From: an uncultured Lentisphaerota bacterium
GTDB lineage: Bacteria; Verrucomicrobiota; Kiritimatiellia; CAIQIC01
Length of the DNA: 64,000 bases
NCBI GenBank assembly: GCA_903912445.1
Contig: CAIWHP010000084.1
Span: forward strand, 3,621 to 67,620
Reading direction: 5' to 3'
Positions 22 to 62,435 of this stretch are shown piece after piece. How positions within the stretch are numbered: the stretch's first letter is position 1; the number at the start of each line of letters is the position of its first letter. Made by a program: the position numbers and the translations under genes. The notes below the pieces were generated by a model. That model was not told where the DNA came from. It saw only the letters and a program-made list of their open reading frames with translations, and ran no database searches.

Positions 22-68
22 TTCCAAGGCTTGGAAAAGTGCGCGGTCAACTTTTCCAAACCTTGGAA
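22..68. repeat. Palindromic 19-bp element array R1 (2 copies, centres about 29 and 61)
   Basis: ttttccaaggcttggaaaa then ttttccaaaccttggaacc, 32 bp apart, about 200 bp upstream of dksA-like gene. Confidence 0.8.
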
Positions 69-270
69 CCCGCTGTGCTGGATGACGCTGCATCAACGGG
101 TTTGTACCCGAAACGCGGGCGGCAGGCAATGGCGGCGAACGCCTCCCGGCCCGTGGCTGCATTTGGGCGCGCGATTTCGTTGACGCGCCGGAGGGGTTCT
201 GTTACAAGCCGCCGCCCATTTTGCGCCGCCGGTGATTCGCGCGGCAGCGGGAAGGGCGGTAAAGTAGCTT

Positions 271-720
271 ATGACGAACAAAAAAACACCGAAGCAAGTG
301 AAGCCTGTTGTCGAGAAAACAGAAGTTCCGGTCGTCAAACGTACCCTGACCCCGGCGGATGAAGTGGTGGCGTTCAAGCAGGTCAAATGGCCGACCACCG
401 AGGTGAAAGAGTTTCGCTCCACGCTGCTCAAGTTGCGCGACCGTGCGGCCGATGGTGTGGCTTTTCTATCGCGTGACAACCCGCAGCTCGTCAGCGGCGG
501 GCAGGAGTCGCTCTACGCCGTCAATGCCGCGCTGCAGCGCCTCGAGCTGGGCACCTATGGCGCCTGCGAGTCGTGCCACGAACTGATTGCCAAGGTCCGC
601 CTGCAGGCCCAGCCGTTTGCCAAGCTGTGCATCAAGTGCCAGTCGGAGGCGGAGAAGGGCAAGCTCCGCTATCGCCCGCTCGGCAAGACCCTGTCGCAGA
701 TCGAAGACCTCGAGGAGTGA
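271..720 (+). CDS. DksA/TraR family C4-type zinc-finger protein
   Basis: 149 aa ORF; CESCH...x17...CIKCQ four-cysteine zinc finger near the C-terminus, typical of DksA/TraR; lysine-rich N-terminus. Confidence 0.65.
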   Translation: MTNKKTPKQVKPVVEKTEVPVVKRTLTPADEVVAFKQVKWPTTEVKEFRSTLLKLRDRAADGVAFLSRDNPQLVSGGQESLYAVNAALQRLELGTYGACESCHELIAKVRLQAQPFAKLCIKCQSEAEKGKLRYRPLGKTLSQIEDLEE

Positions 721-969
721 GCCGGGGCTGCCGCGGGCGCCCACGGGGACTGCTGCGCCAGTACTTGGCGTGCTGATCAGCGGGAGCGTTTGTCGGTGGC
801 GTCTTCATCCCCGCGCAACCCGCAGCCCGGCGACACAGGGGCCGATCGTCCTGTCCGCGCCGTTTGGCTGCGATACGACAGCCCGCCCCTGCACCTCCAG
901 CCCGTACCTTCCGTAGCCGCCCGCGGCAGGGAAGGGCTGCTGGGGGAACAGTTCCGGCGCGCGGGGTCG

Positions 970-3900
970 TTACTTTATATCTTCTTCGCAGACCACGCGG
1001 AAGCCGGTGTTGAAGACCGGTTGCCAGGCGGGATAGGCATAGCGATAGGCGCTGGTGGCGCGGTATGGGCGGTCGTAGAACGAGCCGCCGCGCGCGACCT
1101 TGAGGCCGTCGGCATCGCTGCGGTCGCGGCCATCGTCGGCGTAGGGATAGGGCTGGTAGGTGGTGCGCGTCCACTCGCTGGCGTTGCCGTGCAGATCCTG
1201 CAGCCCCCAAGCGTTCGCCGCGTAGTTGCCGCAGGGCGCGGTGGCGATCGCGCCATCGTTGACGGAATCCACGCGCGGCAACCACTTGGGCGAGTTGCCG
1301 ACGAGCAGCGACGCGAGCCGCTGGTCGGCGAGGTTGGCTTGCTTGCCGAAGTCGGTGTCGAGCGCGCCGTAACTCAGCGGCGTGGTCGAGCCTGCGCGGC
1401 AGGCCCATTCCCACTGTGCTTCCGTCGGCAGCGTGAATTTCTTCCCGGTCTTTTTCGAGAGCCAGTCGCAGAAGGCCATCGCCTTGCTCCAAGAGAGGCG
1501 GATGGCGGGTTGCTTGCCCTGCTGGACCGGGACGCCGGCGGTGCTGTGGTCCTTGTTGAATTGCGAGATGAAGCCGCTGTCGTGGGCGGCATCGAACAGG
1601 CCGTACTGCGCGTTGCTGATCTCGAATTTCGCCATGTAGAACGGCTTCGCAATCTTCACGCGGCAGGTCGGCTGCTCGTCGCGCGCGCCGGCGGCGTCGC
1701 CCATGACGAACTCGCCGGCGGGCACCAGCACCAGTTCCAGCTTCTGCGTCGCGTTCAGGTCCACGCTCATGGTCTTCGGCAGCCCGGCGGATTCCTGCTT
1801 CTTCTTCGCCTCGGCGGCATCAAAGGGCCAGACGTTGGCGATGGTCGCCGGAAGGTTCGCGATCGGCGCGGGCGGCGTTGGTTTCACAAAGGCGACCGGC
1901 GCGGGCGGCGGGGTGGGGTAGACCTCGGGATCAAGGTCGTCGTAGGCGTAGAGCTTGCGCGCGGCCATGCGCTTGGCGTGATAGTCGTTCGAGATCTGGC
2001 GGTGCTCGCCCCACGTGCCGTGGTCGGGCACGTTGAGATCGATCCAGGTGATCAGCCGGTCCCATGCCTCGGCATCGAGCTGCACGCCATGGTGGCCCTT
2101 GCGCAGCATCTGGACCAGTTCCGAGGTCTCGGCGAAATATTCGCACGGCATCTGCATGTAGTAGCTGCTTTCCGGGCCGGGCCGGTAGATGTAGGGATGG
2201 AGAGCGAGGTAGGCGATGTCGAAGGGCAGCACGCGCTTCTTCTTGCCAGCGAGTTCCTTCTCCTCGCGGCCGGGCGAAAAATTCGGGAGCGTCTTGCCAT
2301 CGGGCCGCGCCGCGCCGTTGTGGCAGCCGGCGCAATATTTATCGAGTACCGGCTGGACCTCGCGTGGGAAGCTGAAGCCGCGGCGCGGACCGCGCCACGG
2401 TGTGATGTCCACCGGCGCCGCACGTGCGGCCATGGTAATCCGCGAGGCAGGCACCTCGTCGGTCTTCTCATGACAGCCGACGCACGAGAGGCGCTCGCCC
2501 GGCTGAGCGCTGAACCAGCTCCGCATGATCTGGAGCGCCCGCCCTTGCCCGTCGAGCGGCTGCACGGCGAGCGGCGTGTTGGCCGGCACCTTGAAGAACG
2601 CGGAACCGTCGGCGTTCACCGGCACCGTGCCCACGACGCGGCGCGCGTCCCACGGGCCGTCCACGCCGATGTTGATGTGGCCGCCCATGTGGCGGTAGGC
2701 AAAGTGATATTCGAACACGCGCAGGCTCTTGACCGTGCCGGGCGGCACGCCGGCGAGCCCGCGGCCCGCGTAGACATCGGCGAGATAGACCGTGGCCTCG
2801 CGCTCGCCCAGCTTGACGCGGTCGGGGATGATCGGCGGGCGCGGCGTCGCGCGGAGCGGCACCGGCTCAAACAACGCCATGCCCGGTTGCTCGAGGATCG
2901 GCACGAGGTTGTCGAAAACGTCGGCGAGATAGAGGCCCCACGGCGACTGCGGTGTCGGCTTGCACGACACGAGGAAATATTTTTCGTTCAGCGGGAACGG
3001 GTGCAGGAACCGCGGCCAGCTCGAGTTGACGAGGCCATCCTGAATCACCGGCTCGACCTTCTTGCCGCGGCCGGGGATGCGCTGCACGGCGCCCTCGGCC
3101 TCGAAACGGCCCTTGCCCATGTCGAAGAGAATCAGCTCGCCCATCCGCGGCACGCCGTGGTGGCCGGAAACAATGCCGACGAGCAGCGAGGGGTGGCCCG
3201 GTACCGGGCGCGCGAAAAAGACGCCGTTCGGCCAGTGCGAATTGCTGCCATAGATCGAGGCCTGCCCGGTGCCGTCGGGATTCATCGCGAACAGCAGGCG
3301 CGTGAAGTAGTGCGGCGTGTCGGTGTATTCCCAGCGCGAATAGAGGAGGCGGCCGTCGTTGAGCACCGTCGGGCACCAGTTGTGTTCCTGGTCATAGCAG
3401 AGCATCCGCGTCTGCCCGTTCGTCTCCATCAAGTAGAGGTTGCCCACGTAGTTGCCGCCGCCGACGCATGGCACGCCTTGGAAGCCCGCGGTCGAGTCGA
3501 ACACGATGCGGCCGTCCGGCAGATAGCAGGAGTCATAGTGGTCGATATCCACCTCGTCCGGCGTCACCTGCCGCAGCCCGGAGCCATCGGCCTTGACCTC
3601 CCAGATATGCCACTGCTCTGCGCTGACTTTCCTCTGCTTTTTGTCTGCCTGCTCGACGGTGTTCGTTTTCCGCGCCGGCATGGTGAACATCAGCTTGTCG
3701 GCGTCGAAGTTCAGGTCCACATCGCCCACGAACACGCTCTCCTGCGGACGGAAAAGCGTCGTCAGCTTGCCGTCGGGGCGCACGGGCGAAAGAACCGCGA
3801 TCTCGTTGTCGAATTTCCCGCGCAGGACGTCGTCGCCCTGCCAGTTCTGCGGCAGGCCGAGGCCGCCGCCCTGCGAATTGTTCGGATCGGCGCGCTTCAC

Positions 3901-4320
3901 CAGCATCAGCTTTTCGAAATCCAGCAGCGGATTTTCCAGCAGCGCCTGCCGGCGCAGTGCCAGCAGAGGCGCGCGCAGCTCCTCCGCCGATGCGCCCGCC
4001 GCGAACTTCTGCTCCAGCGTGCCGAGCTGCTTCAGGAAGTCCGCGCCGTGGGTGTACTTTCCGGGGAATGACTTGGTCAGGTCCTCGATCGCCAGCCGCA
4101 GCGCGACGAAGGCGTTGGAGTTGACGCCGCCGACCAGGTCGCGCGCCTCGGCCGCGTTCGCCAGCGCCGCCGGCGCGTTGATCATCCGCTGGGCGGCCTG
4201 TTCTTTCTTGGCCGTCTTGATGGGCGTGGGCTTGTCCGGGTTCTGGTTCTTCGGCGCCGCGTAGGCGGTCGCCATCACCAGGGCCATGCTGGCCGTCAAA
4301 ATTAGGATCCGCATCGTCAT
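970..4320 (-). CDS. Large secreted multidomain protein: N-terminal beta-propeller-like region, two c-type heme motifs (CVGCH, CAGCH), C-terminal FGE-sulfatase (SUMF1/DUF323-like) domain lacking the FGE catalytic Cys pair
   Basis: ATG at 4320 (MTMRILILTASMALVMATAYA signal peptide). CxxCH twice. C-terminal GLQDLHGNASEWT...RGGSFYD...RSAYRYAY matches the FGE-sulfatase fold, but the CxPxxCxxYR catalytic motif is absent. Confidence 0.7.
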   Translation of the reverse strand: MTMRILILTASMALVMATAYAAPKNQNPDKPTPIKTAKKEQAAQRMINAPAALANAAEARDLVGGVNSNAFVALRLAIEDLTKSFPGKYTHGADFLKQLGTLEQKFAAGASAEELRAPLLALRRQALLENPLLDFEKLMLVKRADPNNSQGGGLGLPQNWQGDDVLRGKFDNEIAVLSPVRPDGKLTTLFRPQESVFVGDVDLNFDADKLMFTMPARKTNTVEQADKKQRKVSAEQWHIWEVKADGSGLRQVTPDEVDIDHYDSCYLPDGRIVFDSTAGFQGVPCVGGGNYVGNLYLMETNGQTRMLCYDQEHNWCPTVLNDGRLLYSRWEYTDTPHYFTRLLFAMNPDGTGQASIYGSNSHWPNGVFFARPVPGHPSLLVGIVSGHHGVPRMGELILFDMGKGRFEAEGAVQRIPGRGKKVEPVIQDGLVNSSWPRFLHPFPLNEKYFLVSCKPTPQSPWGLYLADVFDNLVPILEQPGMALFEPVPLRATPRPPIIPDRVKLGEREATVYLADVYAGRGLAGVPPGTVKSLRVFEYHFAYRHMGGHINIGVDGPWDARRVVGTVPVNADGSAFFKVPANTPLAVQPLDGQGRALQIMRSWFSAQPGERLSCVGCHEKTDEVPASRITMAARAAPVDITPWRGPRRGFSFPREVQPVLDKYCAGCHNGAARPDGKTLPNFSPGREEKELAGKKKRVLPFDIAYLALHPYIYRPGPESSYYMQMPCEYFAETSELVQMLRKGHHGVQLDAEAWDRLITWIDLNVPDHGTWGEHRQISNDYHAKRMAARKLYAYDDLDPEVYPTPPPAPVAFVKPTPPAPIANLPATIANVWPFDAAEAKKKQESAGLPKTMSVDLNATQKLELVLVPAGEFVMGDAAGARDEQPTCRVKIAKPFYMAKFEISNAQYGLFDAAHDSGFISQFNKDHSTAGVPVQQGKQPAIRLSWSKAMAFCDWLSKKTGKKFTLPTEAQWEWACRAGSTTPLSYGALDTDFGKQANLADQRLASLLVGNSPKWLPRVDSVNDGAIATAPCGNYAANAWGLQDLHGNASEWTRTTYQPYPYADDGRDRSDADGLKVARGGSFYDRPYRATSAYRYAYPAWQPVFNTGFRVVCEEDIK

Positions 4321-4331
4321 TCCTTCCCGTT

Positions 4332-4408
4332 TTCCAAGGCTTGGAAAACGCGCCACGTTTTATCCCAAAACTTGAAAAAAAGCGCTACTGCTTTTCCCGG
4401 CCTTGAAA
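4332..4408. repeat. Palindromic element array R2 (3 copies, centres about 4339, 4370, 4401; last two degenerate)
   Basis: ttttccaaggcttggaaaa / tcccaaaacttgaaaa / ttcccggccttgaaa, 31 bp phasing, begins 12 bp upstream of the ATG at 4320. Confidence 0.75.
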
Positions 4409-4464
4409 TTCCGCACGCAACAAAGACAGCCCGACAACGCGCCCCTCGGGGCGATATTGTGGCC

Positions 4465-4839
4465 TCACGGCGCGGAAGCATGCGGATACATCCGCGGGAA
4501 ATTCGGCTGGAACGGTTCCTGGTAGCGATAGAGTTCGGGATAGCCGTTCGGCGCGTGCGACGGGGGCGACGGCTCGCCGCGCAGGAACGCGCGCACCACG
4601 CGCAGCCGGTCGCGCGTGGCTTCCAAGCCCACGAAGCGCTCGCCGAAATACCAGCCGCTCCACTTTTCCAGCTCGCCCGCGCGCATCGCGACAAAAACTT
4701 TTTCCAGCGCCGCCAGCGCCTTCTCGATGGAGGTGAGCGCCTGCGCCTTGTCGCCCTTGCCGTAGGCGGTCAGCGCCGCGCCGTAGTTCTCCAGCATCTC
4801 CAGCGCGTGCAAATGAATTTGCAGTTGCGTGAACAGGTG
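4465..4839 (-). pseudogene. In-frame continuation of the GH115-like gene after TAA (C-terminal about 125 aa); the gene is either interrupted or recoded
   Basis: Same reading frame as 4840..6513. Protein-like sequence (ALEMLENYGAALTAYGKGDKAQALTSIEKALAALEKVF...) with no start codon or RBS of its own. Confidence 0.45.
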
Positions 4840-6513: not shown

Positions 6514-6530
6514 CGCTCGTTCCTCTCGTA

Positions 6531-6609
6531 TTCCAAGCCTTGGAACTGCGGACGCCAGAGTTTTCCAAGCCTTGGAAAAAGATGCGAGTCTCTTTTCCAA
6601 GCATTGGAA
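6531..6609. repeat. Palindromic element array R3 (3 copies, centres 6538, 6570, 6602)
   Basis: ttccaagccttggaa x2 and ttccaagcattggaa, 32 bp phasing, 18 bp upstream of the GH115-like ATG (6513). Confidence 0.85.
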
Positions 6610-6695
6610 AACCACAGACGTAGTTTGGTTTCGCGCCAAGGCCGCGAAGCTCGCCAAGGTGCTTTTGTAATTCCCGCAACAGATCAACAGCAGAC

Positions 6696-6831: not shown

Positions 6832-9477
6832 TCAGTGGCTGACCACCGGCATCGTGAATTCCGCGCCGCCGGCGGGGAGGCGGTAGCGGTGCGGGGCGCC
6901 GGGCGGTATGGCGCCGTCGAGGTAGCTGAAGGGCACGCCGACGCCTGCGGGCAGCACGAGTTCGGCTTCGCAAGCGGGCGGCAGCTTGACGCTGATGCGG
7001 TGGACCGTGCCGTCGCGATGCGCCTTGAACTCGATGGGTCCGCGCGGCGTGTGGCTGATCGTTTCGAGGTCGGGCAGGTCGCCGAGCTGCGGGCGCAGTT
7101 GCACGCGCGCGAAGCCGGGCGCGAGCGGGCGCAGGCCGACGATCTCCTGATGCAGAATGAAAACCGGCGCGAGCGGGCAGTGGCTCCATTGCGCGCTGGC
7201 ATCGGTGGGCGCGGTCCAGTTTTCCTGCAAGGAGTTGTTCTCGACCACCGAGCGCATCGTGGCCCAGCGCGTGCGGAAATCTTTCAAGATCACGTCGGTG
7301 CGGCCGAGCTTGCCGAGCGCCCAGTAGCGCCAGCCGGCGTTGCACGGGTAGGAGAAGCCCATGTTCTTTGGCATCTCGACGAGCGCTTTGAGCGCGGCGG
7401 CGGTGTCGCCGCCGGGACACTGGTCGAACAGGATGGAGGTTGCGAGCGCGCGGTCGCTCATGCGCGGGGCTTTGTCCTCGGCGAGCCACGGCAGGTTATC
7501 GAGGAACACGCGCTCGTCCTTGCTCCAGAATTTCGCGGTCGTTGCGCGTAGGAGTTCGGCGCCGCGCTCGCGCGCCTCGGTGGCGCGGGCCCCATCGCCC
7601 ATCGCGGTGGCGAGCGGCGCGAGCGCGTGGGTGAACATCGCGGCGGTGTAGAGGTTGAACGCGCACTGGCGGTCGCGCTGGTTGCGGTAGGCGCTGTGGT
7701 CGATCCAGACATTCGGGATGCCGAGATCCTCGACCGGCAGCAGGCCGTTCCTGTCGCGCAGCGCCCAGAGGTAGTCGCCGAAGCGCAGCAGGCGCGGGAA
7801 CGGCTCGCGCCCGGCGTCGAGGTCGCCGGTTTCGAGGTAGTGGTTCCAGTTGTCGAAGACGAAGCCCACGCCGTGGTCGAGCAGCGGGCCCCAGTAGGCC
7901 GCGTCGAGCTCGCGCTGCGGCAGGCGCGCGAGGCGGTCGAAGGCGGGATAGCAGTCGAGGAAGAAGCCGCTCTTGGTCAGGCCCTCGCTGAACGTGCGGA
8001 GGTAGCGCGCGACGATGCGCTGCTCGCCGAACGCGTAGCGGATCGCGTGCATCTGGTGGCCGCCGTCGCCGCTGTACTGCTGCCGCTCGCGGCCCATGCC
8101 GTCCACGATGGACTCGATGGCGGAATTGCGCAGCGTGTTGATCGAGGCGTCGAAGAGCCGTTGCAGCGGCGCCTCGGAGGTGCGGATCCGGGGCGTTTGC
8201 GGCCAGTCATATTGCCGGCGCCGCAGGCCGACGCCGCGCACGGTCACCGGGCGCGATGCGTTGCGGATGTGAAGCTGGAGCCAGCGGAACGATTCGAAAT
8301 CGAACGTCTCGAATTCGTTCAGGCCTTCGCGGCAGACGAAGCGGCTCCACGAAAAATGGTTGCTGTCGAGCCAGCGCGTCTTCTGCGGGTCATGGCCTTC
8401 CTGCGGAATCAGTTCGACGATGGTGCCCGCCGGCGCCTCGATGGAAAAGCGCGGGAAGCCGACCATCTGCTCGGCGAAGACGAACGTGGCCTCGACGCCC
8501 TCATCCGGTTTCGCCGTCGCCGGCAGTTCCCATGCGTCTGCGCCTTTCGCGACGGCGACGGGCGCGCCAGCCACCACGAAGGCGTCCTTCATCTGCACAT
8601 CGAACCAGTCGGCCGGGTCGCGGTTCCAGTGGACGTGGCCGGAGTGCGCCAGCGCCTGTGCAGCTATGATGGTTTCGCGCGTCGGCGGAATTTGTCGCAT
8701 CCGCAGCGACGAGACTTCCGGCGCGGTGTGGTCCACGCTGTCGCTCGACCAGCCGCCGCCGGCGCACGACGAACCTTTGTCGGGTGGGCACTTGAGTTCC
8801 TGCGCTGCGATCCATTTCGTATCGGGCTGGAAGCCGGTCGTGTCCCAGCCCTGCGGCCAGAGGCGCGCGTCAAATTCTTCCTGTAGCGCGCGCAGGAACC
8901 AGCGCTTGTAGTGGCCCGGCTGGTGCGCGCGGTCGAGCAGCGCCAGCCAGCTTTTATCGCTGACGACATGCTGGCGCGCGCCTGCTACGTCGAGGTCGAG
9001 GTTGAAGAGCAGCCCCGGCTTGCCACCCGGCCACGTGCCCTCGCCGAAGCCGTAGAAGAGCACTTCCACGCCGATCACGTTCTTGCCGGCCTTCAAGAAG
9101 GGTTTCAGGTCGAGCGGGTCGGCGTCGAGGTTGCGCGGGTCGCACGGCGCCGGACCCCACTGTACACGCTGGCCGTTGACCGTGACGAGATAGCGGCTGT
9201 CCGCGGCGATCCAGCCGAACGCGCTCGTCGGCGCGGCGGAGAGTTCGACTTCCTTGCGGAACAACACGAACGTATTCGGCAGCGTGCGCTGCGAGGGCAG
9301 CCAGATCCATTTTGCCGGCGCGAGCGAGAGCGCGCGCGGTTGCGTCGCGGCGTGCGCATCCTTGCCGAACCGGAGCGCCGTCGCCTCCGCCGCCGAAATT
9401 GGCGCGGCGGTCTCTGCGGAGGCTGCGCAGCTCAACAGCCCCGCCGCATACAGTGCGATTGCCCTAGATTTCATCAT
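6832..9477 (-). CDS. GH78-like alpha-L-rhamnosidase family protein (six-hairpin glycosidase), secreted
   Basis: 881 aa. N-terminal signal MMKSRAIALYAAGLLSCAASA. Size and domain order (N-terminal beta-sandwich then alpha/alpha-6 barrel region) resemble bacterial rhamnosidases. Confidence 0.5.
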   Translation of the reverse strand: MMKSRAIALYAAGLLSCAASAETAAPISAAEATALRFGKDAHAATQPRALSLAPAKWIWLPSQRTLPNTFVLFRKEVELSAAPTSAFGWIAADSRYLVTVNGQRVQWGPAPCDPRNLDADPLDLKPFLKAGKNVIGVEVLFYGFGEGTWPGGKPGLLFNLDLDVAGARQHVVSDKSWLALLDRAHQPGHYKRWFLRALQEEFDARLWPQGWDTTGFQPDTKWIAAQELKCPPDKGSSCAGGGWSSDSVDHTAPEVSSLRMRQIPPTRETIIAAQALAHSGHVHWNRDPADWFDVQMKDAFVVAGAPVAVAKGADAWELPATAKPDEGVEATFVFAEQMVGFPRFSIEAPAGTIVELIPQEGHDPQKTRWLDSNHFSWSRFVCREGLNEFETFDFESFRWLQLHIRNASRPVTVRGVGLRRRQYDWPQTPRIRTSEAPLQRLFDASINTLRNSAIESIVDGMGRERQQYSGDGGHQMHAIRYAFGEQRIVARYLRTFSEGLTKSGFFLDCYPAFDRLARLPQRELDAAYWGPLLDHGVGFVFDNWNHYLETGDLDAGREPFPRLLRFGDYLWALRDRNGLLPVEDLGIPNVWIDHSAYRNQRDRQCAFNLYTAAMFTHALAPLATAMGDGARATEARERGAELLRATTAKFWSKDERVFLDNLPWLAEDKAPRMSDRALATSILFDQCPGGDTAAALKALVEMPKNMGFSYPCNAGWRYWALGKLGRTDVILKDFRTRWATMRSVVENNSLQENWTAPTDASAQWSHCPLAPVFILHQEIVGLRPLAPGFARVQLRPQLGDLPDLETISHTPRGPIEFKAHRDGTVHRISVKLPPACEAELVLPAGVGVPFSYLDGAIPPGAPHRYRLPAGGAEFTMPVVSH

Positions 9478-52082: not shown

Positions 52083-52087
52083 AACTT

Positions 52088-55573: not shown

Positions 55574-55622
55574 GAGTCTACTCCTGAAATTCGCCGCAGA
55601 CTCTACTCGCCCGCCAGCCGTT

Positions 55623-55668
55623 TTCCAAGGCTTGGAAATGGATCAGCCCGCTTTTCCAAGGCTTGGAA
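55623..55668. repeat. Palindromic element array R12 (2 perfect copies, centres 55630 and 55661)
   Basis: ttttccaaggcttggaaa x2, 31 bp apart, 50 bp upstream of the gcvPA ATG. Confidence 0.9.
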
Positions 55669-55849
55669 AAGTGCGCGCAAGGAAGCGCGGAAGGGAAACA
55701 TCCAGTCGAGCCGGCCTCTCGACCGGATGACGAAGCAGCTCCCCCGAGATCAAAAACAAAAACTAATCGCAGGATATCGAGCAAGGGATGCCGAACGATG
55801 AAAGGGCCGGTTTCTGCAGCGGCGACAGGCGGACGCGGTCGCGGAGTGT

Positions 55850-57682
55850 TCAATACGGCAGGATGAGAGCGCTTTTTCCCGCCAGTGTTGTCACCACGCC
55901 TGCTGGTGAGATTTTTCGGATCGTGCAGTCGTCCTCGTCGGCCACAAAGACGTTGCCCGACTTATCCACGGCTACGCTGGTGGGTGAATTAAAGCGCGCG
56001 CCGTTGCCCGTACCATCCACGCTGCCATACTCCCCTGCGGTGCCAGCCAGCGTGGTGACCACACCGTTTGGCGTGATCTTTCTGACCGTGCAATTGCCCA
56101 GTTCAGTCAAATAGAGATTACCTGCTAGATCCACAGCCAAACCCGCCGGCCAACAAAACCGTGCCAGATGGCAGGGGCCGTCCAGGCTGCCCTTCTCCCC
56201 GGCGCGGCCCGCCCAGGTGGTAACGACACGCGCAGGCGTGATCTTCCGAATCGTATGGCTCCCCCAATCTGCCACGAACAGGTTTCCCGTCCGGTCCATG
56301 GCTATGCCCGCTGGCGCAGTGAAGCGAGCCGACGCGCCGGCGCCGTCGGCATGGCCCTGGTTCCCTGCGCTCCCGGCGAAGGTTGTCACCTCTCCAGCAG
56401 GGGTCATCTTTCGGATCGTGCAATCGCTGCGGTCAGTCACAAACACATTGCCAGTGCTGTCCACGACCAGATCACCTGGGCGTCGGAACCGCGCAGCGCT
56501 CCCCGTGCCATCGGTGCTGCCCTTCTCTCCGGCGCAACCGGCGAGTGTCGTCACCACGCCCTCCGGCGTAACTTTCCGAATGACCTTGTCATAGTCGTCC
56601 GTCACATAGAGATTGCCTGCTTGGTCGATGGCGATGCCGGAAGGTTCGTTAAACCGCGCCGCGTTGCCCGTCCCATCGACTGTCCCGCACATTTCCGCCG
56701 CGTTGCCCACGAACGTCGTGACCACACCTTTGGGCGTCACCTTCCGAAGCACCCGGTTGCGATTATCCACCACAGAGAGGTTGCCCGCAGCATCCACGAC
56801 CACCCCGCAAGGTGCATTGAAACGTGCCACGGTGCCCGCGCCGTCCACGTAACGCGGTTCTTCCACGCGGACATCCGCATCCATCCAAGCTCGATATCTC
56901 GAATAATGTTCATGAAATTCTTTATAGGTGGTGGTCAGGTACTCGTTAAATTTCCCATTCAGGAAAAACTCGGCTGGATTGCCCTTGCCATCCAACTTGA
57001 TTTCAAGACAATCACGGTTCGGGCTGTTTTGCACCTGGATATACTTGGTCGGCTGCCCGGTGAGCGGCTCCCGCTCCAGCCGAACTTCACGGGTCTTATA
57101 GTTCCTGGAAAAAAGTTCATAGTGGTAGCCGAAGTTTTTGCCTGCCCTCGTCTCTGCTTCCTTGATGGAATCGTAGAGTTCATGGTGAAACTCGTAGTGA
57201 AACATCGCTGCATGCTCCACCGACAGGCGAATGCGCATAATGGCGACATCATCATCGCTAAGACGATGCAGCAGATTCGTCGCCTCGTAACCATCCACGG
57301 TCCACCAGTCCTGCGCAGCATTTCTCGAAACATGTAAACAGAAATCGGCCAGACGGCCATCTTTTGCGGAGCCATACCAGGCGATTTTATCGAAGCTGTT
57401 CGTCGCTTTCCGATGCAGTATCCCGCCCCAAGCTTGTCTGGCTGTGGGCACGAGAGATTGGCCCCCCGGGAAGGAGCGTGTGTCATCGCGACAAAACTCA
57501 AGCAACCGCTCGATGGGCCAGCGTTCCTCCAGTAAGCGCGTGACTGCCTCGGGCGAAGAAAGGCCCGCTGGCTCGAGTGGTGTCTGGCAGCCAGCAAACG
57601 GCAAGAACATGCCGCCAAAAATAACGACACCGCACAAGCCGCTCACCGCATGTCCGGCGCTTCCGTTAATGCGACTCCTCAA
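55850..57682 (-). CDS. NHL-repeat beta-propeller lipoprotein
   Basis: 6-7 repeats of ...G..DGTG.AARF..P.GIA.D..GN.YV.D...; TTG 57682 start with lipobox FAGC. Confidence 0.6.
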   Translation of the reverse strand: MRSRINGSAGHAVSGLCGVVIFGGMFLPFAGCQTPLEPAGLSSPEAVTRLLEERWPIERLLEFCRDDTRSFPGGQSLVPTARQAWGGILHRKATNSFDKIAWYGSAKDGRLADFCLHVSRNAAQDWWTVDGYEATNLLHRLSDDDVAIMRIRLSVEHAAMFHYEFHHELYDSIKEAETRAGKNFGYHYELFSRNYKTREVRLEREPLTGQPTKYIQVQNSPNRDCLEIKLDGKGNPAEFFLNGKFNEYLTTTYKEFHEHYSRYRAWMDADVRVEEPRYVDGAGTVARFNAPCGVVVDAAGNLSVVDNRNRVLRKVTPKGVVTTFVGNAAEMCGTVDGTGNAARFNEPSGIAIDQAGNLYVTDDYDKVIRKVTPEGVVTTLAGCAGEKGSTDGTGSAARFRRPGDLVVDSTGNVFVTDRSDCTIRKMTPAGEVTTFAGSAGNQGHADGAGASARFTAPAGIAMDRTGNLFVADWGSHTIRKITPARVVTTWAGRAGEKGSLDGPCHLARFCWPAGLAVDLAGNLYLTELGNCTVRKITPNGVVTTLAGTAGEYGSVDGTGNGARFNSPTSVAVDKSGNVFVADEDDCTIRKISPAGVVTTLAGKSALILPY

Positions 57683-57715
57683 TAGCGTTCCTCTTAACCC
57701 TAAACGCTGACGGGG

Positions 57716-58162
57716 CTACCCGGCGCCCAAGGCTTCGATGTCAGCCAGATCTTTCTTGCGGCCGGCGGCGCGTTTATTTGCAATGAATTGTTCGCGACCG
57801 ATGAAAAAGACTGGCACATCGCCGTAGGTTCCGGCGGCTTTGTGGGCGGCAGCTTCCTCCCACGAGACACCCGAGATGGAGGTGATCAGGTCAATACGCA
57901 CTGGCGGCATACCCAGCTGAACGACCTTGTCGGGAGAATGAAAATCTTCAGCCGCAAGACCCGGCAAATTGAAGCCGAACGCCTCAAGGGCACGCATGAT
58001 GCGCTGGGCATTCTCAGGGTGCGGACGAACAAAAACGTCAATATCTCCTGTAAAGCGCGGAGCACCGTGGAAGGCCAAGGCGAATCCGCCGACGATGAGG
58101 TATTCAACCTTTTGCTCGTTCAACAACACGAGCAGCTCTTTGAAGTCGGGCTGTATTTCCAT
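57716..58162 (-). CDS. Minimal nucleotidyltransferase (MNT/Pol-beta-like NTase fold) protein
   Basis: GGFALAFHGAPRFTGDIDVFV (GS...DxD NTase motif); 148 aa. Confidence 0.5.
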   Translation of the reverse strand: MEIQPDFKELLVLLNEQKVEYLIVGGFALAFHGAPRFTGDIDVFVRPHPENAQRIMRALEAFGFNLPGLAAEDFHSPDKVVQLGMPPVRIDLITSISGVSWEEAAAHKAAGTYGDVPVFFIGREQFIANKRAAGRKKDLADIEALGAG

Positions 58163-58351
58163 AAAATTGCCGGCGAAGGATTTCGACCGCGCTGACGCGC
58201 TCTTCGGGCGGGCGGCTCAACCAGTAGGCGAGATCTCGCCGCGTGGAGCCGTCACGCAGGCTGTGCTTGGATATGACGCGTTGAATCACGGCGGCAGTAT
58301 AGCCGATTTGCGCGCGCAGGAAACGCTTTTCCCTCTCGCGCGGACAGAGCT

Positions 58352-58392
58352 TTCCAAGGATTGGAAACAGGCGTTTTTCCAAGCATTGGGAA
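58352..58392. repeat. Palindromic element array R13 (2 copies, centres 58359 and about 58384)
   Basis: ttccaaggattggaa, ttccaagcattgggaa. Confidence 0.7.
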
Positions 58393-58662
58393 AACTCACG
58401 CTGCGTGTTTCAGGCCTTGATATTGCGCTAAGCATAGAGGGTGAGAGCCTGACACTAGCTAGGAGCGGTGGTCCCGCCACGGCGGGACCGCCGCAGTGGA
58501 ACCGTCAGGCGTGGGCGTTGCACTCGTGTCTGCGCCCACAGCCAAACGACCCCACTATGCGGGGCGGTGAGGACACCGCCCCTCCCAGCTAGTCGGACAA
58601 CCTCGCGTCTGTTCTTGGCGCAATATCTCCCCTTGGAAAACGTCGGTGCGTGATGAACCGGC

Positions 58663-59115: not shown

Positions 59116-62100
59116 TTTTCCTGTAAAAGGGTGACGGGCCCGAGCAGCCCGGCGGGCTGGGGCAGCGGCGTGGCCTTCCGCTTGTGCGATTCCTTGATGC
59201 GGATGTTCGTCTTCGTCAGGCGCTGGTCGTCCGGCAGGGCTTCGTCGGCCAGCACGCGGTTCCACCAGCCGTTGACCACGTCGATTTCGAGCGCGTTGCC
59301 TGTGGGCTTGACCGCGCCGGTGATCTCGACCTGAAACGGCGCCGCCCAGACGACGCCGAGGTTCTGCCCGTTCAGCCGGACCTCGGCGATGAAGCCGAGA
59401 CTGCCGAGGTTGAGGAAGAGCGGGTTGGATGGTGGATGGTGGATGGCGGATGGCAGGTCGAACGTTTTCCGATACGTCGCCGTGCCGCTGTAGGCCTTGA
59501 GGCCCGGTTCGGGGCGCTCGGTCCAGCTGACGAGCTGCGCGAACTCGGCCGCGGCCGGCGCGCCCCACTTGGCGTCGAACGTCACATGCCAGGCGCCGGT
59601 GAGCTCGCCGACCTGCGTCAGCGTCGGGAAATTATTACCGTTGCCGTTGGTTGTGGCGGGCTTCTGGAAGATCACGAACTGCGAGCCATAGGCCGGCAGC
59701 TCCAACGGCACGGTCGTGCGCCCGTCGGCCTGTGTGAAGGCGGCGGCGTCGCGGCGCGCGCCGGTCACGGCGTCCCACAGCTCCGGCTGCTTGCCGCTGA
59801 CGCGGAAGGTGGCGGCAATTTTCTGCGCTTCGGCTTCCTGGTTGCTGATGAAATAAATGTCGACACCCCCATCGCAGCGATGAATCCAATCCATCCTTGG
59901 ATGTTCGATGTTGGATGTTCGGTGTTCGATGTTCAATTCCACGTCCGGCTTGACCGAGAGCGCGGCGAGCGCCGCCTTCGCGGACACCGGCTTGATGCGG
60001 CCGCTGTCCCAGAGTTCGTCGGCGATCTGCTTCAACTCGGCGTCGCCCTGCCGTCCGGTGGTGCGCTCCGGCTTCGGACCGATGACGACCGCGCCGGCGA
60101 GCACCAGTTCGCGGATTTTTCGCGCGGCGGCGAGTGACATGGTCTTGACGCTCGGCAGCGCGAGCACGCGGTAGCTCATGCCGTCGGGCAACACGAGGCG
60201 CCCGTCCTTGACGCTCATGCGCGTCAGCAGCACTTCCTCGTTGCAGACGTCGTAGTCGTATTCCGGCAGCACCTTGGCGGGATCATCCTTTTTCAGGCGG
60301 ACAAAATTCGGGACGTGGTCGCCGTAGTAGAAGCAAACGTCGCCGACGAACCTGCCGCGCTGGAGCAGGAACTGGCTGCGGTCGAGGTACGAGATGAACG
60401 CGTGCGCCTGTTTCGCCCAGGTGATCTGCGGATTGAAATGCGTACCGGCGAAATACTCCTGACCTGGCAGCCCCATTTCCGGCGGCGAACAGGTGAACGC
60501 GTGCCAGAAGACCAGGTTCAGCCCGGCGCACGCCTCGTGGTCAAAGCTCGGCTTCTGCGAGCACCACAGCAGATCGTTCCACTGCGGACCGATCGAGGTG
60601 AAGCCCTCGGCGCAGGCGATCTGTTTGCCGTAAATGTGCGCGGCGGAGGAAGCCTGCTTGACGAAGAAGCGCTGCTCGTCGGCTGGCCGGTGCGGCGAGG
60701 GCACCCAGAATTCGCTCATCGGCATCGAGTTCAGGCCGAAGTTTTGCAAGCCGTCGAGGCACGCGCAGTGCGGGCCGCCGGATTCCGGCTGGATGCCCAT
60801 GCCAACTTTTTGCGCATACTCCGCCATCAGCGCGTAGTGGTTGTCGTGTACGAGGTCGGCGATGGTGCGGCGGAAATCGTTGAGGAATTTGTTGCTCTCG
60901 CCACGGCTGCTGACGATCCGGCCGGCAATCACGGGCAGCCACGGCTGGATCGCGTAGCCGCGCCGCTTCGCAAATTCCGCGGCAAAGATCCTCGTCCAGT
61001 TGACGCCGCCGAGTTCCCAGCTATCGGACTGGAAATTCTTCAGCGTCTTGCCCGCGAGCGGCCCGGCGTCGGCCAAGAGCGGCGCGATCATCTGCTGCCA
61101 GTAGCCGCGGAACGCGTCGGCGTCGAGATAGTCGAGGACCATGCCCCGCCACTCGCCGCTCGCGGTCGAGACGCGCGCGCCGTTGAGTGTGTAGCCGAAG
61201 CGCAACACCTGCCAGTTGCCCGCGGGCACGTCCCAGTTCAATTTGCCGTCGGTGAATTTGTCCGTCAGGTCAAGCACGTCGGCTGCGGCCACGTCTTCCT
61301 CGCCGGGCGTCGCGGGCACGTCTTCGAGCAGCGGTGCGCAGTCGGTGGCGCTGCCGCCGAGTTCATGGAAGGCGGCCTTCTGCTGCAAATCCCGGATCGG
61401 CGCACGGCCGCGGCCGGTGAGCAGCGGCGCGCCCTTGGCGTCGAGGGGGACGATTTCTGCGATCTGCACGTTGCGCGGCGTCTTCGGCTCGCGCGGATCA
61501 TAGGCGCCGCGGATCAGCAGGCGGAAATCCGCCGCGGTCTGGGGCGCGAAATGAATTTCCGCGGGCTTTTTGTTCTCCACGGTGAAGGCCTGCACGGTCT
61601 TGAATTTCTTGCCGTCGTCGGAGACCTGCCACTCGCATTCGCGCGGGCCGTAGCCGGGCCGGCCGACCACGCGCACGCCGCCGAGCGTCACCGGCTGTGG
61701 GAACGCGAGCGCGACCCACTCGGGGTTTTTCGCGCTCGGACCCTGGCCGACCGTGCTGCCGTGGCTGACCCAGAACGTGGCCTCCGAGCCATCGAGCATC
61801 GCCGCCGTGTTGCCCTCCACCTGCGCGGAGCTGACGCTGAGCTGCGGCAGCGGCGTGCCCGCGCCTTCCTTCTGCCGATAGGCGAGGACGAACGTGTCGC
61901 GGTAAAAATCGTCGCGCGCCTTCGGCTGCGGCAGCGAGCCGGAAAATTTTTGCGGCCCCGCGAGGCGCGCCTCCGCGAAGGCGATGCGCTTCGCCGACTC
62001 CTCCGGCTGCACGACCGGCCCGCCGAGATTCCAGCCGCTCTGGATGTTCAGGCTCACCTCAAGCCCGAGGCGATCGGCTTCCTTGAGCGCGTGTTTGAAC

Positions 62101-62390
62101 AACTCGCGCCACTCGGGGCTGCCGAACAGTGGCCCCGCTGGTACCGGCACATGCCCGCCCTGCGTTGCGCCGCCCGCGTCGAAAATCAAACCGCCGCCCA
62201 TGCCGATGGACTGCATCCACTCGAGGTCGTGCGTGATCGCCTGCTTGGTGACGTTGCCGTTGAGCCACCACCAATAGGCGCGCGTCCGCGCCGCGAGCGG
62301 CGGCTGGTTCCAGCCGGTTTCCAGCTCGCCGGCGCCGACGGCCAACGTGAGCAAGGCACCGCACGCGAGGAGTAGAGATGAGGTATTCAT
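59112..62390 (-). CDS. Large secreted glycoside-hydrolase-like protein with F5/8 type C (discoidin) domain; family uncertain (GH106-like?)
   Basis: ATG 62390 (MNTSSLLLACGALLTLAVGA). Discoidin-like GSEATFWVSHGS...ECEWQVSDDGKKFKTV. About 1090 aa. Confidence 0.55.
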   Translation of the reverse strand: MNTSSLLLACGALLTLAVGAGELETGWNQPPLAARTRAYWWWLNGNVTKQAITHDLEWMQSIGMGGGLIFDAGGATQGGHVPVPAGPLFGSPEWRELFKHALKEADRLGLEVSLNIQSGWNLGGPVVQPEESAKRIAFAEARLAGPQKFSGSLPQPKARDDFYRDTFVLAYRQKEGAGTPLPQLSVSSAQVEGNTAAMLDGSEATFWVSHGSTVGQGPSAKNPEWVALAFPQPVTLGGVRVVGRPGYGPRECEWQVSDDGKKFKTVQAFTVENKKPAEIHFAPQTAADFRLLIRGAYDPREPKTPRNVQIAEIVPLDAKGAPLLTGRGRAPIRDLQQKAAFHELGGSATDCAPLLEDVPATPGEEDVAAADVLDLTDKFTDGKLNWDVPAGNWQVLRFGYTLNGARVSTASGEWRGMVLDYLDADAFRGYWQQMIAPLLADAGPLAGKTLKNFQSDSWELGGVNWTRIFAAEFAKRRGYAIQPWLPVIAGRIVSSRGESNKFLNDFRRTIADLVHDNHYALMAEYAQKVGMGIQPESGGPHCACLDGLQNFGLNSMPMSEFWVPSPHRPADEQRFFVKQASSAAHIYGKQIACAEGFTSIGPQWNDLLWCSQKPSFDHEACAGLNLVFWHAFTCSPPEMGLPGQEYFAGTHFNPQITWAKQAHAFISYLDRSQFLLQRGRFVGDVCFYYGDHVPNFVRLKKDDPAKVLPEYDYDVCNEEVLLTRMSVKDGRLVLPDGMSYRVLALPSVKTMSLAAARKIRELVLAGAVVIGPKPERTTGRQGDAELKQIADELWDSGRIKPVSAKAALAALSVKPDVELNIEHRTSNIEHPRMDWIHRCDGGVDIYFISNQEAEAQKIAATFRVSGKQPELWDAVTGARRDAAAFTQADGRTTVPLELPAYGSQFVIFQKPATTNGNGNNFPTLTQVGELTGAWHVTFDAKWGAPAAAEFAQLVSWTERPEPGLKAYSGTATYRKTFDLPSAIHHPPSNPLFLNLGSLGFIAEVRLNGQNLGVVWAAPFQVEITGAVKPTGNALEIDVVNGWWNRVLADEALPDDQRLTKTNIRIKESHKRKATPLPQPAGLLGPVTLLQEK

Positions 62391-62420
62391 GGCGCGCTTT
62401 ATAGGCGACCGCGTGCCGCT

Positions 62421-62435
62421 TTCCAAGCTTTGGAA
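62421..62435. repeat. Palindromic element R14 (1 clear copy, centre 62428; degenerate copy about 62460)
   Basis: ttccaagctttggaa, 31 bp upstream of the 62390 ATG. Confidence 0.7.

Follow-up and report, generated by a model that had tools for sequence, protein, structure and literature searches.

Among the closest described counterparts of the element analyzed here are the REP/BIME repeats (Di Nocera et al. 2013, PMC3733652), short intergenic palindromes that number hundreds to thousands, stand alone or form pairs or clusters, often lie past stop codons and between convergent genes, are shared by related species and are occasionally intragenic. Among cooperative operators, the nearest comparison is offered by the arrays of the Lrp/FFRP family, dimers of which occupy sites 2 or 3 turns apart on one face of the DNA and wrap it (PMC2995911). 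More generally, such operators resemble the present element in that their boxes are palindromic, with half-sites that are offset by one turn and decay independently, and in occurring as pairs up to a few boxes, with centers at integral turns and dimers sharing a face. NrdR boxes are 31–32 bp apart. Three further systems share some traits with the element: CRISPR arrays have partly palindromic direct repeats with unique spacers of constant length, intrinsic (bidirectional) terminators are palindromes at the ends of genes, bordered by runs of A and T, and DNA uptake sequences (DUS of Neisseria, USS of Pasteurellaceae) are lineage-specific, highly over-represented motifs read on the duplex, sometimes as inverted pairs after genes.

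A phased dyad repeated at 14 loci

The stretch of DNA analyzed here, 64 kb in length (hereafter, the window), contains a 19-base palindrome, TTTTCCAAG-S-CTTGGAAAA, with approximately 30–37 occurrences over 14 loci, compared to approximately 0.02 expected by chance. A search for the 19-mer allowing up to 3 mismatches returned 37 strand-hits versus 0.02 expected, a number matched by none of 100 shuffles, and a search for the core yielded 27 matches versus 0.10 expected. All of these matches fall within the 14 loci of the initial annotation, the coordinates of which correspond to the 15-nt cores rather than full 19-mers. When degenerate copies phased to a strong copy are included, the count is 30 under a strict rule and approximately 37 by eye, in agreement with the at least 34 copies reported initially.

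The dyad symmetry of the element is genuine: each unit comprises 2 half-sites of 7 bp, set one helical turn from each other (TTTCCAA-N3-TTGGAAA), with T/A tracts on either side. Information content is maximal on TTTCCAA and TTGGAAA and dips at the 3 central bases; at the very center, 448 of 458 copies carry G or C, with near-equal use of the two (G 228, C 220). Comparison of copies confirms that the half-sites degrade independently, as first proposed. None of the reading frames of the motif contains a stop codon, and the suspicion that it creates false N-terminal extensions was justified: ORF 15496–16992 runs through 4 copies, read as FQGLE, FPRLG, SKPWK and FQSLE.

Arrays comprise 1 to 5 copies, with pairs being most frequent. 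Across the window and its relatives, neighboring copies are separated by 31 or 32 bp in 206 of 222 links (94 and 112, respectively), with a mean of 31.53 bp, or 3 × 10.51 bp. In the window, the 31–32 bp spacing described previously holds generally, except at copies 58350 and 58375, which are only 25 bp apart, and at the decayed locus 20286–20382, which reads as 2 pairs, the successive gaps being 30, 18 and 32 bp. The 12–13 bp linkers are constant in length and unrelated in sequence (adjacent, 0.391; random, 0.389), with spacer centers rich in G/C (A+T 17%). Neighboring copies are in a dyad arrangement, with center-base GC pairs exceeding CG pairs (81 vs 36, p = 4e-5). The exact three-turn phasing (10.51 bp per turn), for which Lrp-family geometry provides a precedent (PMC2995911), is an argument for the previously suggested cooperative binding along a single face of the DNA.

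Gene context of the arrays

The first array (20–70), with a perfect copy at 20–38 and one with 3 mismatches at 52–70, lies upstream of a DksA/TraR-type zinc-finger gene (268–720, plus strand). Three copies at 4330–4410, perfect at 4330 and decayed at 4361 and 4392, are located 11 nt before the ATG of an FGE/HZS-alpha gene (970–4299, minus strand) and downstream of a small ORF (4465–4839, minus), whereas the 3 copies at 6529–6611, spaced by 32 bp, precede the GH115 ATG (6506, minus) by 24 nt, with a Shine-Dalgarno sequence, GAGAGGAA, in between. Four copies spaced by 31 bp (15596–15707) occupy the divergent gap between GntR (minus) and a sulfatase/glycyl-radical enzyme/activase operon (plus), downstream of both a promoter-like TTGACA-17-TACATA (15526–15554) and the GntR operator (15559–15571). 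The sole canonical start for the sulfatase signal peptide, a TTG at 15700, lies within the last of these copies, and 4 of 4 copies are kept in relative L011. The decayed array at 20284–20382 (cores 20286/20316 and 20334/20366) starts 8 nt past the stop of the radical-SAM activase gene (19394–20275, plus), upstream of 20478–22325 (plus).

Pairs of copies are found at 29570–29620, where the S9 peptidase (minus) and GYF/DUF975 (plus) genes diverge, 29 nt from the peptidase start; at 30793–30843, between the GYF/DUF975 stop (30727) and a PQQ beta-propeller gene (plus); and at 34295–34345, 13 nt upstream of the GH5 ATG (34282, minus), in a divergent gap shared with an alpha-galactosidase gene (plus). 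Three decayed copies at 40437–40518 begin 1 nt past the stop of 39457–40435 (plus) and overlap the annotated start of a GreA-fusion gene (plus). A GDSL hydrolase gene (50564–51838, minus) has 3 copies 42 nt downstream of its stop (50440–50521) and 3 others (52002–52084) between its start and an M48-peptidase-like gene (52070–52741, minus), the stop codon of which is overlapped by the final copy. The remaining loci are a pair at 55621–55670, 49 nt upstream of gcvPA (minus), 3 irregularly spaced copies at 58350–58426 (58350, 58375 and a decayed one near 58406) in a lower-GC stretch adjoining an NHL-repeat gene, and a single copy (62419–62437) 30 nt from the GH106 start.

Most window loci thus conform to the initial description of arrays ending 10–60 bp upstream of start codons, and in the window alone there is a promoter-side bias (0 of 6 convergent gaps vs 13 of 18 others, p = 0.003), but neither trait is general across the family. 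In relatives, arrays are as frequent in convergent gaps as in divergent or tandem ones and fill the 52–144 bp separating the stop codons of housekeeping genes that converge (e.g., ETF-QO/GlgC, an SDR, an E2 acyltransferase, SodA, RRF). In tandem gaps, they crowd the upstream stop codon (23 of 59 within 9 nt), and a few arrays lie inside coding sequence, with 17 of 458 copies being genic and 96% intergenic. No shared function was found among the array-flanked genes of the window and relatives. Hence, of the operator for a single regulator envisaged upstream of genes, the dyad unit, phasing and conservation stand, whereas specificity for promoters and a single gene set do not. GntR, put forward as a binder, is a poor candidate, since its own operator differs (GTGGCTATGCCAC, 15559–15571; GTGGCCTAGCCAC, 15469–15481). 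With approximately 2.5 copies per locus and roughly one locus per 4.6 kb, the motif is, to our knowledge, far denser than the sites of any characterized sequence-specific regulator.

The outer half-site also serves as a −35 box at 3 loci of the window. TTGGAA (29572–29577, minus) is 17 nt from TATGCT (29549–29554) at the S9 peptidase gene and TTGGAA (62421–62426, minus) is 17 nt from TATAAA (62398–62403) at GH106, followed 6 nt and 7 nt further on by the respective ATGs (29542; 62390, minus), a leaderless-type promoter layout. At gcvPA, TTGGAA (55623–55628, minus) is 17 nt from TAGAGT (55600–55605), and relative L059, which has a third copy, keeps this distance despite a changed spacer sequence. 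Overall, TAnnnT occurs 16–17 nt past the terminal TTGGAA at 8 of 95 start-facing ends (1.5 expected, p = 2e-4) and at 0 of 91 stop-facing ends. Together with the avoidance of convergent gaps in the window, this layout speaks for a lineage-specific promoter architecture, in which the motif would be a bidirectional −35 element, presenting TTGGAA on each strand, and upstream copies would be UP-element-like or activator sites. However, approximately 90% of start-facing ends lack a correctly placed −10 box, the neighboring copy puts TCCAAG/TTCCAA at the −10 position, the sulfatase array is downstream of a good promoter-like site, and arrays fill gaps between convergent stop codons and crowd upstream stop codons, making this explanation very improbable.

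Conservation and turnover in relatives

Conservation in relatives, on which a regulatory role had been made to depend, is evident at 2 levels. First, at least 7 other species-level MAGs, labeled Kiritimatiellales, "Lentisphaerae" or "Verrucomicrobia", carry the same phased arrays, and approximately 6 further MAGs have the motif as single copies; the arrays really do span a whole family of uncultured Kiritimatiellales-type bacteria. Second, in orthologous arrays, which persist across approximately 70–83% identical genomes, the motif is kept while spacers diverge: the 14 half-site positions are 94.6% identical versus 56.6% for spacers (Fisher p = 1e-15), showing that half-sites, and not spacers, are under selection.

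In 2 species, a phased pair lies within thiD-thiE and aligns gap-free to solved ThiD structures (PNFPELGKLLGRNFQGLEE vs PNLPEAEVLLGRPIRTEEE), with protein length unchanged; substitution rather than insertion therefore created this pair in place. Translation passes through its 2 copies in different frames, indicating that the constraint acts on nucleic acid. Uptake signals of Haemophilus and Neisseria likewise appear within genes by substitution, and the present motif is also lineage-specific, very abundant, recognizable on the duplex and common to many species, as would be a sequence favored by uptake or recombination machinery and accumulating by mutation and biased transmission. Known uptake signals are non-palindromic and common within genes, unlike the mostly intergenic copies described here, and such molecular drive predicts neither three-turn phased arrays nor the dyad arrangement of neighbors. 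We therefore give it hardly any credence.

Relatives also differ by whole arrays: where L047 has 5 copies, the window (positions 9388–9692) has none, and there is a further difference between L038 (7407) and the window (about 44880). Unit-sized indels are seen as well (L073 vs L097; window vs L059). This turnover is also compatible with a repeat-element dynamic, that is, REP/BIME-like semi-selfish extragenic palindromes that would be propagated by a dedicated (RAYT-like or other) enzyme and tolerated in intergenic DNA only, the transcribed hairpins of which would, as side effects, stabilize mRNA ends or modulate translation close to stop codons. Indeed, the element is REP/BIME-like in its ecology, being a high-copy, lineage-specific, almost purely intergenic family of singles, pairs and clusters with preferred mutual orientation of neighbors, frequently 0–9 nt past stop codons and in convergent gaps; its arrays fold strongly as single strands, and even its intragenic copies have precedent in the REPs within genes reported in PMC3733652. 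Yet it fails the REP tag test, with neither GTAG/CGTC nor any conserved unpaired end, and its A/T-rich stem is weak (−5.1 kcal/mol, z = −1.8) and devoid of compensatory covariation. Constant-length, sequence-unrelated linkers at an exact helical repeat are not predicted by a hairpin/transposition model, divergent gaps hold arrays just as commonly, the thiD pair arose without insertion, selection holds orthologous copies in place, and no target-site duplications were seen at the presence/absence sites compared between relatives. Accordingly, an element of this kind is unlikely, and its promoter-targeting version, proposed initially, fails on the targeting as well as on the tag.

Possible pairing at the RNA level

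Arrays abut start codons, at 0 nt in L073 (GGAAAATG) and 11 nt at the FGE gene, with the sulfatase start inside a copy, and stop codons are abutted too, so that many arrays are certainly transcribed. The palindromes could, accordingly, be hairpins in 5′ and 3′ untranslated regions that protect or process mRNA ends, the symmetric unit working in either orientation and the reader being an RNA-binding protein or RNase, which could require both sequence and shape. A 19-bp stem is possible in arrays of 2 copies (−25 kcal/mol, z = −3.9), copy-on-copy folding of single-stranded arrays could reach −25 to −55 kcal/mol, and complementary neighbor centers (GC + CG = 117) slightly exceed GG + CC (86). However, compensatory changes are at expectation both within copies (25 double changes vs 23.9, with 225 single breaks) and between copies (24 vs 24.6), the flanking bases of the copies do not prolong the palindrome, there is no Rfam match, and the center base on the sense strand is C as often as G (61 vs 59). 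GC pairs far outnumber CG pairs, though both could pair, and the ±0.5 nt spacing tolerance around 3 × 10.5 is a property of duplex DNA. At 3 window loci the motif is upstream of the −10 box, hence outside that gene's transcript. The hairpin option of the initial annotation thus gains no support from covariation, and an RNA element appears quite improbable.

A proposed docking site on duplex DNA

The sequences themselves show the site anatomy and phasing, selection on half-sites but not on spacers, the absence of pairing covariation and of polarity relative to transcription, the in situ origin of the thiD pair, and the spread over all classes of intergenic gap. The phasing, half-site selection, lack of a pairing signal and in situ origin of the thiD pair favor a dyad site for a stacking dimer. 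These sequence features suggest that the element is a docking site, present in great abundance, for a DNA-binding protein rather than a control site dedicated to a single gene set. Its likeliest reader is a dimeric protein, probably of the (winged-)helix-turn-helix type, that recognizes it in double-stranded form; we infer the binding, fold and oligomeric state of this protein and the effect of binding. A family-wide, high-copy DNA site for a stacked-dimer protein with an architectural or boundary role is the explanation that we favor, albeit with about even confidence; the unusual density of the sites, the turnover of whole arrays, the strong single-strand folding of transcribed arrays and the promoter-side bias of the window weigh against it. 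Dimers would touch along one helix face, forming dimers of dimers and longer stacks. Given that arrays occupy the borders of genes and operons in every orientation, the protein would be an abundant factor with an architectural or boundary role rather than a pathway regulator. Such a factor might act as a silencer, roadblock or topological barrier, and where the outermost half-site is a −35 box, its occupancy would gate that promoter directly.

Comparison with known systems

Compared to CRISPR, both the 19-bp repeat and the 12–13 bp spacer are far below the CRISPR ranges, loci contain at most 5 repeats, the 14 loci are scattered in 64 kb amid ordinary genes, spacers are compositionally constrained with a G/C-rich center, and no cas genes are present in the 64-kb window. 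DNA uptake sequences, although similarly lineage-specific, over-represented and able to arise in coding sequence by substitution, are non-palindromic, are not helically phased or arrayed, and have a large coding fraction. Relative to intrinsic terminators, the polarity is reversed, with the T run before and the A run after the stem on both strands, the stem is weak, and the space between a promoter and a start codon can hold arrays too. Canonical terminators are also present in this genome (e.g., 10675–10699). The element differs from REP/BIME in its untagged, perfect dyad with a weak A/T-rich stem lacking covariation, in the unrelated 12–13 bp linkers at an exact three-turn repeat, in its equal presence in divergent gaps and in one pair made in situ in thiD. 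Finally, whereas cooperative operators serve particular regulons and number in the tens or are degenerate, the present element consists of near-consensus 19-bp sites at approximately one locus per 4.6 kb, beside functionally unrelated neighbors, at 3′ ends and in convergent gaps.

Abundance and anatomy of the palindromic element

The palindromic element is real, statistically overwhelming and family-wide among uncultured Kiritimatiellales-type bacteria. In the 64-kb window, the 19-mer TTTTCCAAGGCTTGGAAAA yielded 37 strand-hits at ≤3 mismatches versus 0.02 expected, and the 15-nt core TTCCAAGNCTTGGAA matched 27 times at ≤2 mismatches versus 0.10 expected, with every match falling into one of the 14 loci reported in the initial annotation. 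The latter had estimated at least 34 copies, which is borne out by our counts of 30 (strict rule) and about 37 (by eye), both including phased decayed copies. Because the G+C content of the window is 65%, an A/T-flanked palindrome is strongly conspicuous. Of the 63 occurrences of the half-site hexamer TTCCAA/TTGGAA in the window, 47 are within copies of the motif. A possible link to CCWWGG restriction sites was examined and nothing special was found.

The anatomy of the unit was analyzed on 458 copies, 17 of them genic, from the window and 106 further loci (879 kb in total). Information content peaks on TTTCCAA and TTGGAAA, the centers of which are 10 bp apart, and dips on the 3 central bases, with the center base being G in 228 copies, C in 220 and A or T in 10. 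T5 and A5 tracts extend the motif, so that the palindrome spans 19 bp, or 21 bp counting these tracts. No conservation past the tracts was detected in the position profile of 901 flanks, and the unit is symmetric.

Searching 185,579 species-representative genomes for perfect copies of the 19-mer (center G or C) revealed at least 106 motif-bearing stretches. Among the matches listed, 105 of 106 belong to 13 MAGs of uncultured bacteria that carry the label Lentisphaerae, Verrucomicrobia, Kiritimatiellaeota or Kiritimatiellales. The lone match outside is in a Leisingera genome. Phased arrays are present in at least 7 of the 13 MAGs, not counting the window's own genome. The closest relative of the window among the matches listed is MAG CAISWQ01 (83–90% identity over genes), and none of the at least 106 listed loci matches the window exactly. 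The motif is thus a property of the lineage and is not confined to the window locus. In the lower-GC relatives CAYYYX, JAEIOF and CAZABK, the motif is mostly single or phased less strictly, and the strict 31/32-bp arrays may represent a derived state of a high-GC sub-lineage. In 4 stretches from lower-GC relatives (L104, positions 4698–4831; L029 and L053 of MAG CAYYYX01; L054 of JAEIOF01), the palindrome is mostly single or at 52–65 bp spacings, with an unrelated hairpin sometimes located between the copies. Viral contigs contained 5 singleton matches, all in unrelated low-GC sequences, as would fit chance, and a phage origin was rejected. Searches of the accessible literature returned primers and unrelated matches only for the exact sequence, and nothing for a Kiritimatiellales repeat.

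Arrays are phased at three helical turns

Neighboring copies are 31 bp (94 links) or 32 bp (112 links) apart in 206 of the 222 links, with a mean spacing of 31.53 bp, equal to 10.51 bp per turn across 3 turns. This spacing supports the one-face cooperative geometry that had been proposed in the initial annotation. The sample comprises 82 single copies, 109 pairs, 33 triplets, 11 four-copy and 3 five-copy arrays, 5 being the maximum. The spacers (12–13 bp) display no consensus but have G/C-rich centers (A+T 17%), an enrichment that the terminal flanks lack. Adjacent spacers are no more similar to each other than random ones (0.391 versus 0.389, in either orientation); thus, there is no sign of recent tandem duplication of the units, and this origin was ruled out. 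The center base, which is the only asymmetry of the unit, follows a dyad arrangement within arrays (G-then-C 81, C-then-G 36; p = 4e-5), and arrays tend to open with a G-centered copy and to close with a C-centered one regardless of the direction of the flanking genes.

CRISPR arrays consist of repeats of about 23–55 bp and spacers of about 21–72 bp, are long and have cas genes nearby. With 19-bp repeats, 12–13 bp spacers, at most 5 copies and cas domains not found in the window, the arrays described here do not belong to this class.

Arrays are located at gene borders of all orientations

In the window, each of the 14 loci is on the promoter side of one gene or more, and none of the 6 convergent gaps holds an array. 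The flanked genes encode a DksA-type zinc-finger protein, the FGE protein, GH115, GH5, GH106, alpha-galactosidase, the sulfatase/glycyl-radical enzyme/activase operon, an S9 peptidase, a PQQ propeller protein, the GreA fusion, a GDSL hydrolase and gcvPA. In the relatives, arrays occupy 45–47% of gaps whether these are tandem, divergent or convergent; where gaps did not drive the sampling, the proportions were 18%, 30% and 31%, respectively. Several convergent gaps in the relatives, with 52–144 bp between 2 stop codons, are nearly all array, and convergent cases were verified by Pfam domains reaching both C-termini (ETF-QO/GlgC, SDR, E2 acyltransferase, SodA, and RRF). An operator of a single regulon was rejected, because the neighboring genes share no function and arrays also reside in convergent gaps and within genes. 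The original reading of the arrays as a promoter-specific or single-regulon feature does not survive the convergent-gap arrays and the unrelated functions of the neighbors.

In co-directional gaps, the array usually lies close to the upstream stop codon (≤9 nt in 23 of 59), with a median of roughly 55–80 nt to the next start. Some arrays abut the start codon, as does GGAAAATG in L073, a genome stretch of a relative, and the array of the FGE gene (970–4299) is 11 nt from its start codon. The only canonical start of the sulfatase gene is a TTG inside copy 4 of an array that is downstream of both a TTGACA-17-TACATA site and a likely GntR operator. Given such positions next to start codons or downstream of a promoter-like site, many arrays must be transcribed.

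A 4-copy array stands at the 5′ end of the sulfatase operon (15700–20275), which also encodes a PFL-like glycyl-radical enzyme (16989–19373) and a radical-SAM activase (19394–20275), and a decayed array follows 8 nt past the last stop codon of the operon. The sole irregularly spaced array (58350/58375, 25 bp) is within a segment (55850–58600) with a G+C content of 58% versus 65% and a minus-strand NHL/beta-propeller repeat gene; this segment is possibly acquired DNA. In L095, another relative's stretch, a tRNA-like sequence, GCGCCGGCGTAGCTCAGTGGTAGAGCAGCGG (about 3210–3250), adjoins a two-copy array.

Candidate binding proteins and other proteins of the window

The gap between the GntR/UTRA gene and the sulfatase operon contains 2 palindromes of 13 bp, GTGGCCTAGCCAC (15469–15481) and GTGGCTATGCCAC (15559–15571), the latter located just after the TTGACA-17-TACATA site (15526–15554). 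Both are kept in the corresponding stretch of a relative (L011) and are likely GntR operators, mediating autoregulation and control of the sulfatase/glycyl-radical enzyme operon. GntR, initially put forward as a candidate binder of the arrays, was rejected as such, given that it has likely, conserved operators of its own next to the array. The small ORF at 50091–50426 was also rejected, its translation looking non-coding. A search for large arrays preceding a regulator's own gene found none.

In the GreA fusion (40485–42809; 774 aa), the recognizable GreA/GreB N- and C-terminal domains are confined to the final 170 residues and are preceded by roughly 600 residues without a Pfam match. In the FGE protein (970–4299; 1109 aa), a hydrazine-synthase-alpha domain in the middle is joined to an FGE-sulfatase domain at the C-terminus, and in a relative (L015, 2718–5804) FGE is also fused to a Ser/Thr kinase. 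A Ser/Thr protein kinase of 1552 aa that bears leucine-rich repeats is encoded in the window itself (22526–27184).

Relationship to promoters and terminators

The outward-facing half-site TTGGAA is similar to a −35 box. In sigma-70-type promoters, a −35 and a −10 hexamer precede the gene with 16–18 bp between them. Of the 95 start-facing ends, 8 carry a TAnnnT sequence 16–17 nt past TTGGAA (1.5 expected, p = 2e-4), compared to 0 of 91 stop-facing ends. The spacer is exactly 17 nt at 3 window genes, gcvPA (TAGAGT), S9 peptidase (TATGCT) and GH106 (TATAAA), and at gcvPA this distance is kept in the relative's stretch L059 despite a different spacer sequence. About 90% of start-facing ends lack a suitably placed −10 box, and the −35 role looks like a secondary use of the motif. 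With −10 boxes being rare and arrays present in convergent gaps with Pfam-verified gene ends, a promoter-only element was rejected. The −10 box precedes the ATG by 6 nt at the S9 peptidase gene (29540–29578) and 7 nt at the GH106 gene (62388–62426), which would imply leaderless mRNAs in this organism.

Intrinsic terminators consist of a stable G+C-rich hairpin with a U tract immediately behind it. An element of this type was likewise rejected: on both strands the U tract comes before the stem and the A tract after it, the hairpin is weak, and the flanks do not extend the stem. To see whether arrays stand in for canonical terminators, a crude terminator caller was applied; independent terminators were detected in 2 of 11 convergent gaps with arrays versus 7 of 13 without (p = 0.10), and in 21 of 56 tandem gaps with arrays versus 17 of 80 without (p = 0.05); with the same crude caller, the order of terminator and array was 10:9. 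A convergent gap of the window without an array (10675–10707) carries a canonical intrinsic terminator, GAGGGGCGGCCAAGTGCCGCCCCTC (10675–10699), followed by a T run; thus, the organism uses ordinary terminators too.

Recognition at the DNA or RNA level

A lone unit forms a weak hairpin with an A/T stem (−5.1 kcal/mol, z = −1.8), and copy-on-copy folding of the palindromic copies within arrays is possible (−25 to −55 kcal/mol). Within copies, there are 225 pair-breaking single changes and 25 pair-restoring double changes versus 23.9 expected, consistent with the earlier observation that half-sites decay independently. Between neighboring copies, 24 restoring changes were observed versus 24.6 expected, and extension of the palindrome into the flanks revealed no flank complementarity. 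With covariation and flank complementarity both absent, a selected hairpin, whether intra-copy, inter-copy or flank-extended, was rejected. The sense-strand center in co-directional gaps is C in 61 and G in 59 cases, so transcript polarity is absent. A search of the window against Rfam 15 at gathering score gave 0 matches, by which a known RNA family was rejected. An RNA-level element, one of the main rival explanations, against which the absence of covariation, flank complementarity, transcript polarity and an Rfam match all speak, is improbable.

The lack of selection for pairing, of polarity and of an Rfam match, together with a spacing tolerance of half a bp, centered on a whole multiple of the helical repeat of duplex DNA, favors a symmetric dimer that would read double-stranded DNA, with contacts between dimers 3 turns apart. 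The arrays also have two hallmarks of cooperative transcription-factor operator arrays, namely inverted half-sites about 1 turn apart that decay independently and spacing by an integral number of turns; a functionally coherent set of targets in promoter regions, also typical of such arrays, was not seen.

Selection, origin in situ and turnover

The presence of the motif in relatives, proposed initially as a check, is accompanied by strong conservation of the half-sites. Across orthologous arrays with flanking genes of 72–90% identity, identity is 94.6% over the 14 half-site positions, 77% over the 3 center bases and 56.6% over the spacers (half-sites versus spacers, p = 1e-15). The strongest single result on selection comes from a thiD–thiE fusion gene, which in 2 species contains a phased motif pair (stretches L030, 2331–2381, and L071, 5324–5376) spanned by the Pfam kinase domain. 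Alignment of the motif-bearing ThiD with solved ThiD structures needs no gaps (PNFPELGKLLGRNFQGLEE versus PNLPEAEVLLGRPIRTEEE), and the copies, 32 bp apart, are read in different frames. Because the alignment is gap-free, the length unchanged and the frames different, the pair was written by substitution, with amino-acid changes as the cost, rather than inserted. Further intragenic copies are located in an ABC-permease loop, a kinase–FGE linker and a flippase.

Array sizes vary between relatives. One 30-bp unit is extra in L097 compared to L073, the gcvPA array has a third copy in L059 that is absent from the window, and recombination between neighboring identical copies would explain unit-sized deletions. 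Whole arrays also differ in comparisons between relatives at about 76–85% identity: 5 copies are present in L047 versus none at window positions 9388–9692, and an array at L038 7407 is absent at the corresponding window position (about 44880). Inspection of these presence/absence sites revealed neither clean indels nor target duplications.

A putative mark of gene borders

Collectively, we see about an even chance that the arrays are highly abundant, phased binding sites of a putative dimeric DNA-binding protein. The dimer would recognize the symmetric motif on double-stranded DNA, contact its neighbors 3 turns away and act at gene borders. A more far-reaching possibility, which we regard as tentative, is a new bacterial chromatin mark, whereby a putative clade-specific, highly sequence-specific architectural protein would polymerize on border arrays and serve the whole genome as a boundary, a roadblock or a means of silencing; selection would then place arrays at gene or operon borders, even in coding sequence where gaps are lacking. 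There is an appreciable chance that the arrays constitute a boundary mark of a new class that acts throughout the genome.

If a protein reads the arrays, each genome of this uncultured, polysaccharide-degrading lineage would have roughly a thousand of its gene borders marked by a precise, phased, high-information site, providing a handle on the insulation or silencing of transcription units and on the spread of a site family by substitution rather than transposition. To our knowledge, no model bacterium marks its gene borders in this way. The motif is also a compact sequence marker of the clade and, for some promoters, a ready-made −35 box, relevant to promoter prediction and expression engineering in Kiritimatiellales. 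Because it is open in all 6 reading frames, it causes false N-terminal extensions, as correctly recognized in the initial annotation, and fused ORFs in gene calling of these MAGs.

Comparison with known systems

The known kinds of elements resembling this family are high-copy intergenic palindromes and operator arrays. REP sequences are 20–40 bp extragenic palindromic repeats of high copy number that are found mainly past coding regions, where the neighboring ORFs are unidirectional or convergent; an unpaired tetranucleotide tag, GTAG or CGTC, marks one end of their palindrome (PMC3733652). The ecology of our motif is similar to that of REP/BIME, including size, high copy number and extragenic location (458 copies in 879 kb, 17 of them genic), and the motif is frequent past stop codons and in convergent gaps. 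However, it is equally frequent in divergent gaps, and the convergent gaps of the window hold no copies. The motif further differs from REP/BIME in lacking the GTAG/CGTC tag, in its weak A/T stem without covariation, unlike the G-C-rich hairpin of a REP, which is kept as a structure by compensatory changes, and in its linkers of fixed length and unrelated sequence. REPs are accompanied by a RAYT transposase gene with repeats on either side; no transposase was seen among the window genes. A REP-like repeat, one of the main rival explanations, is unlikely. As for operator arrays, paired NrdR boxes have a geometry alike to that of the motif arrays. The array geometry also has a precedent in Lrp-family regulators, with phasing of 2 or 3 turns on one face and 3 dimers wrapping about 100 bp (PMC2995911).
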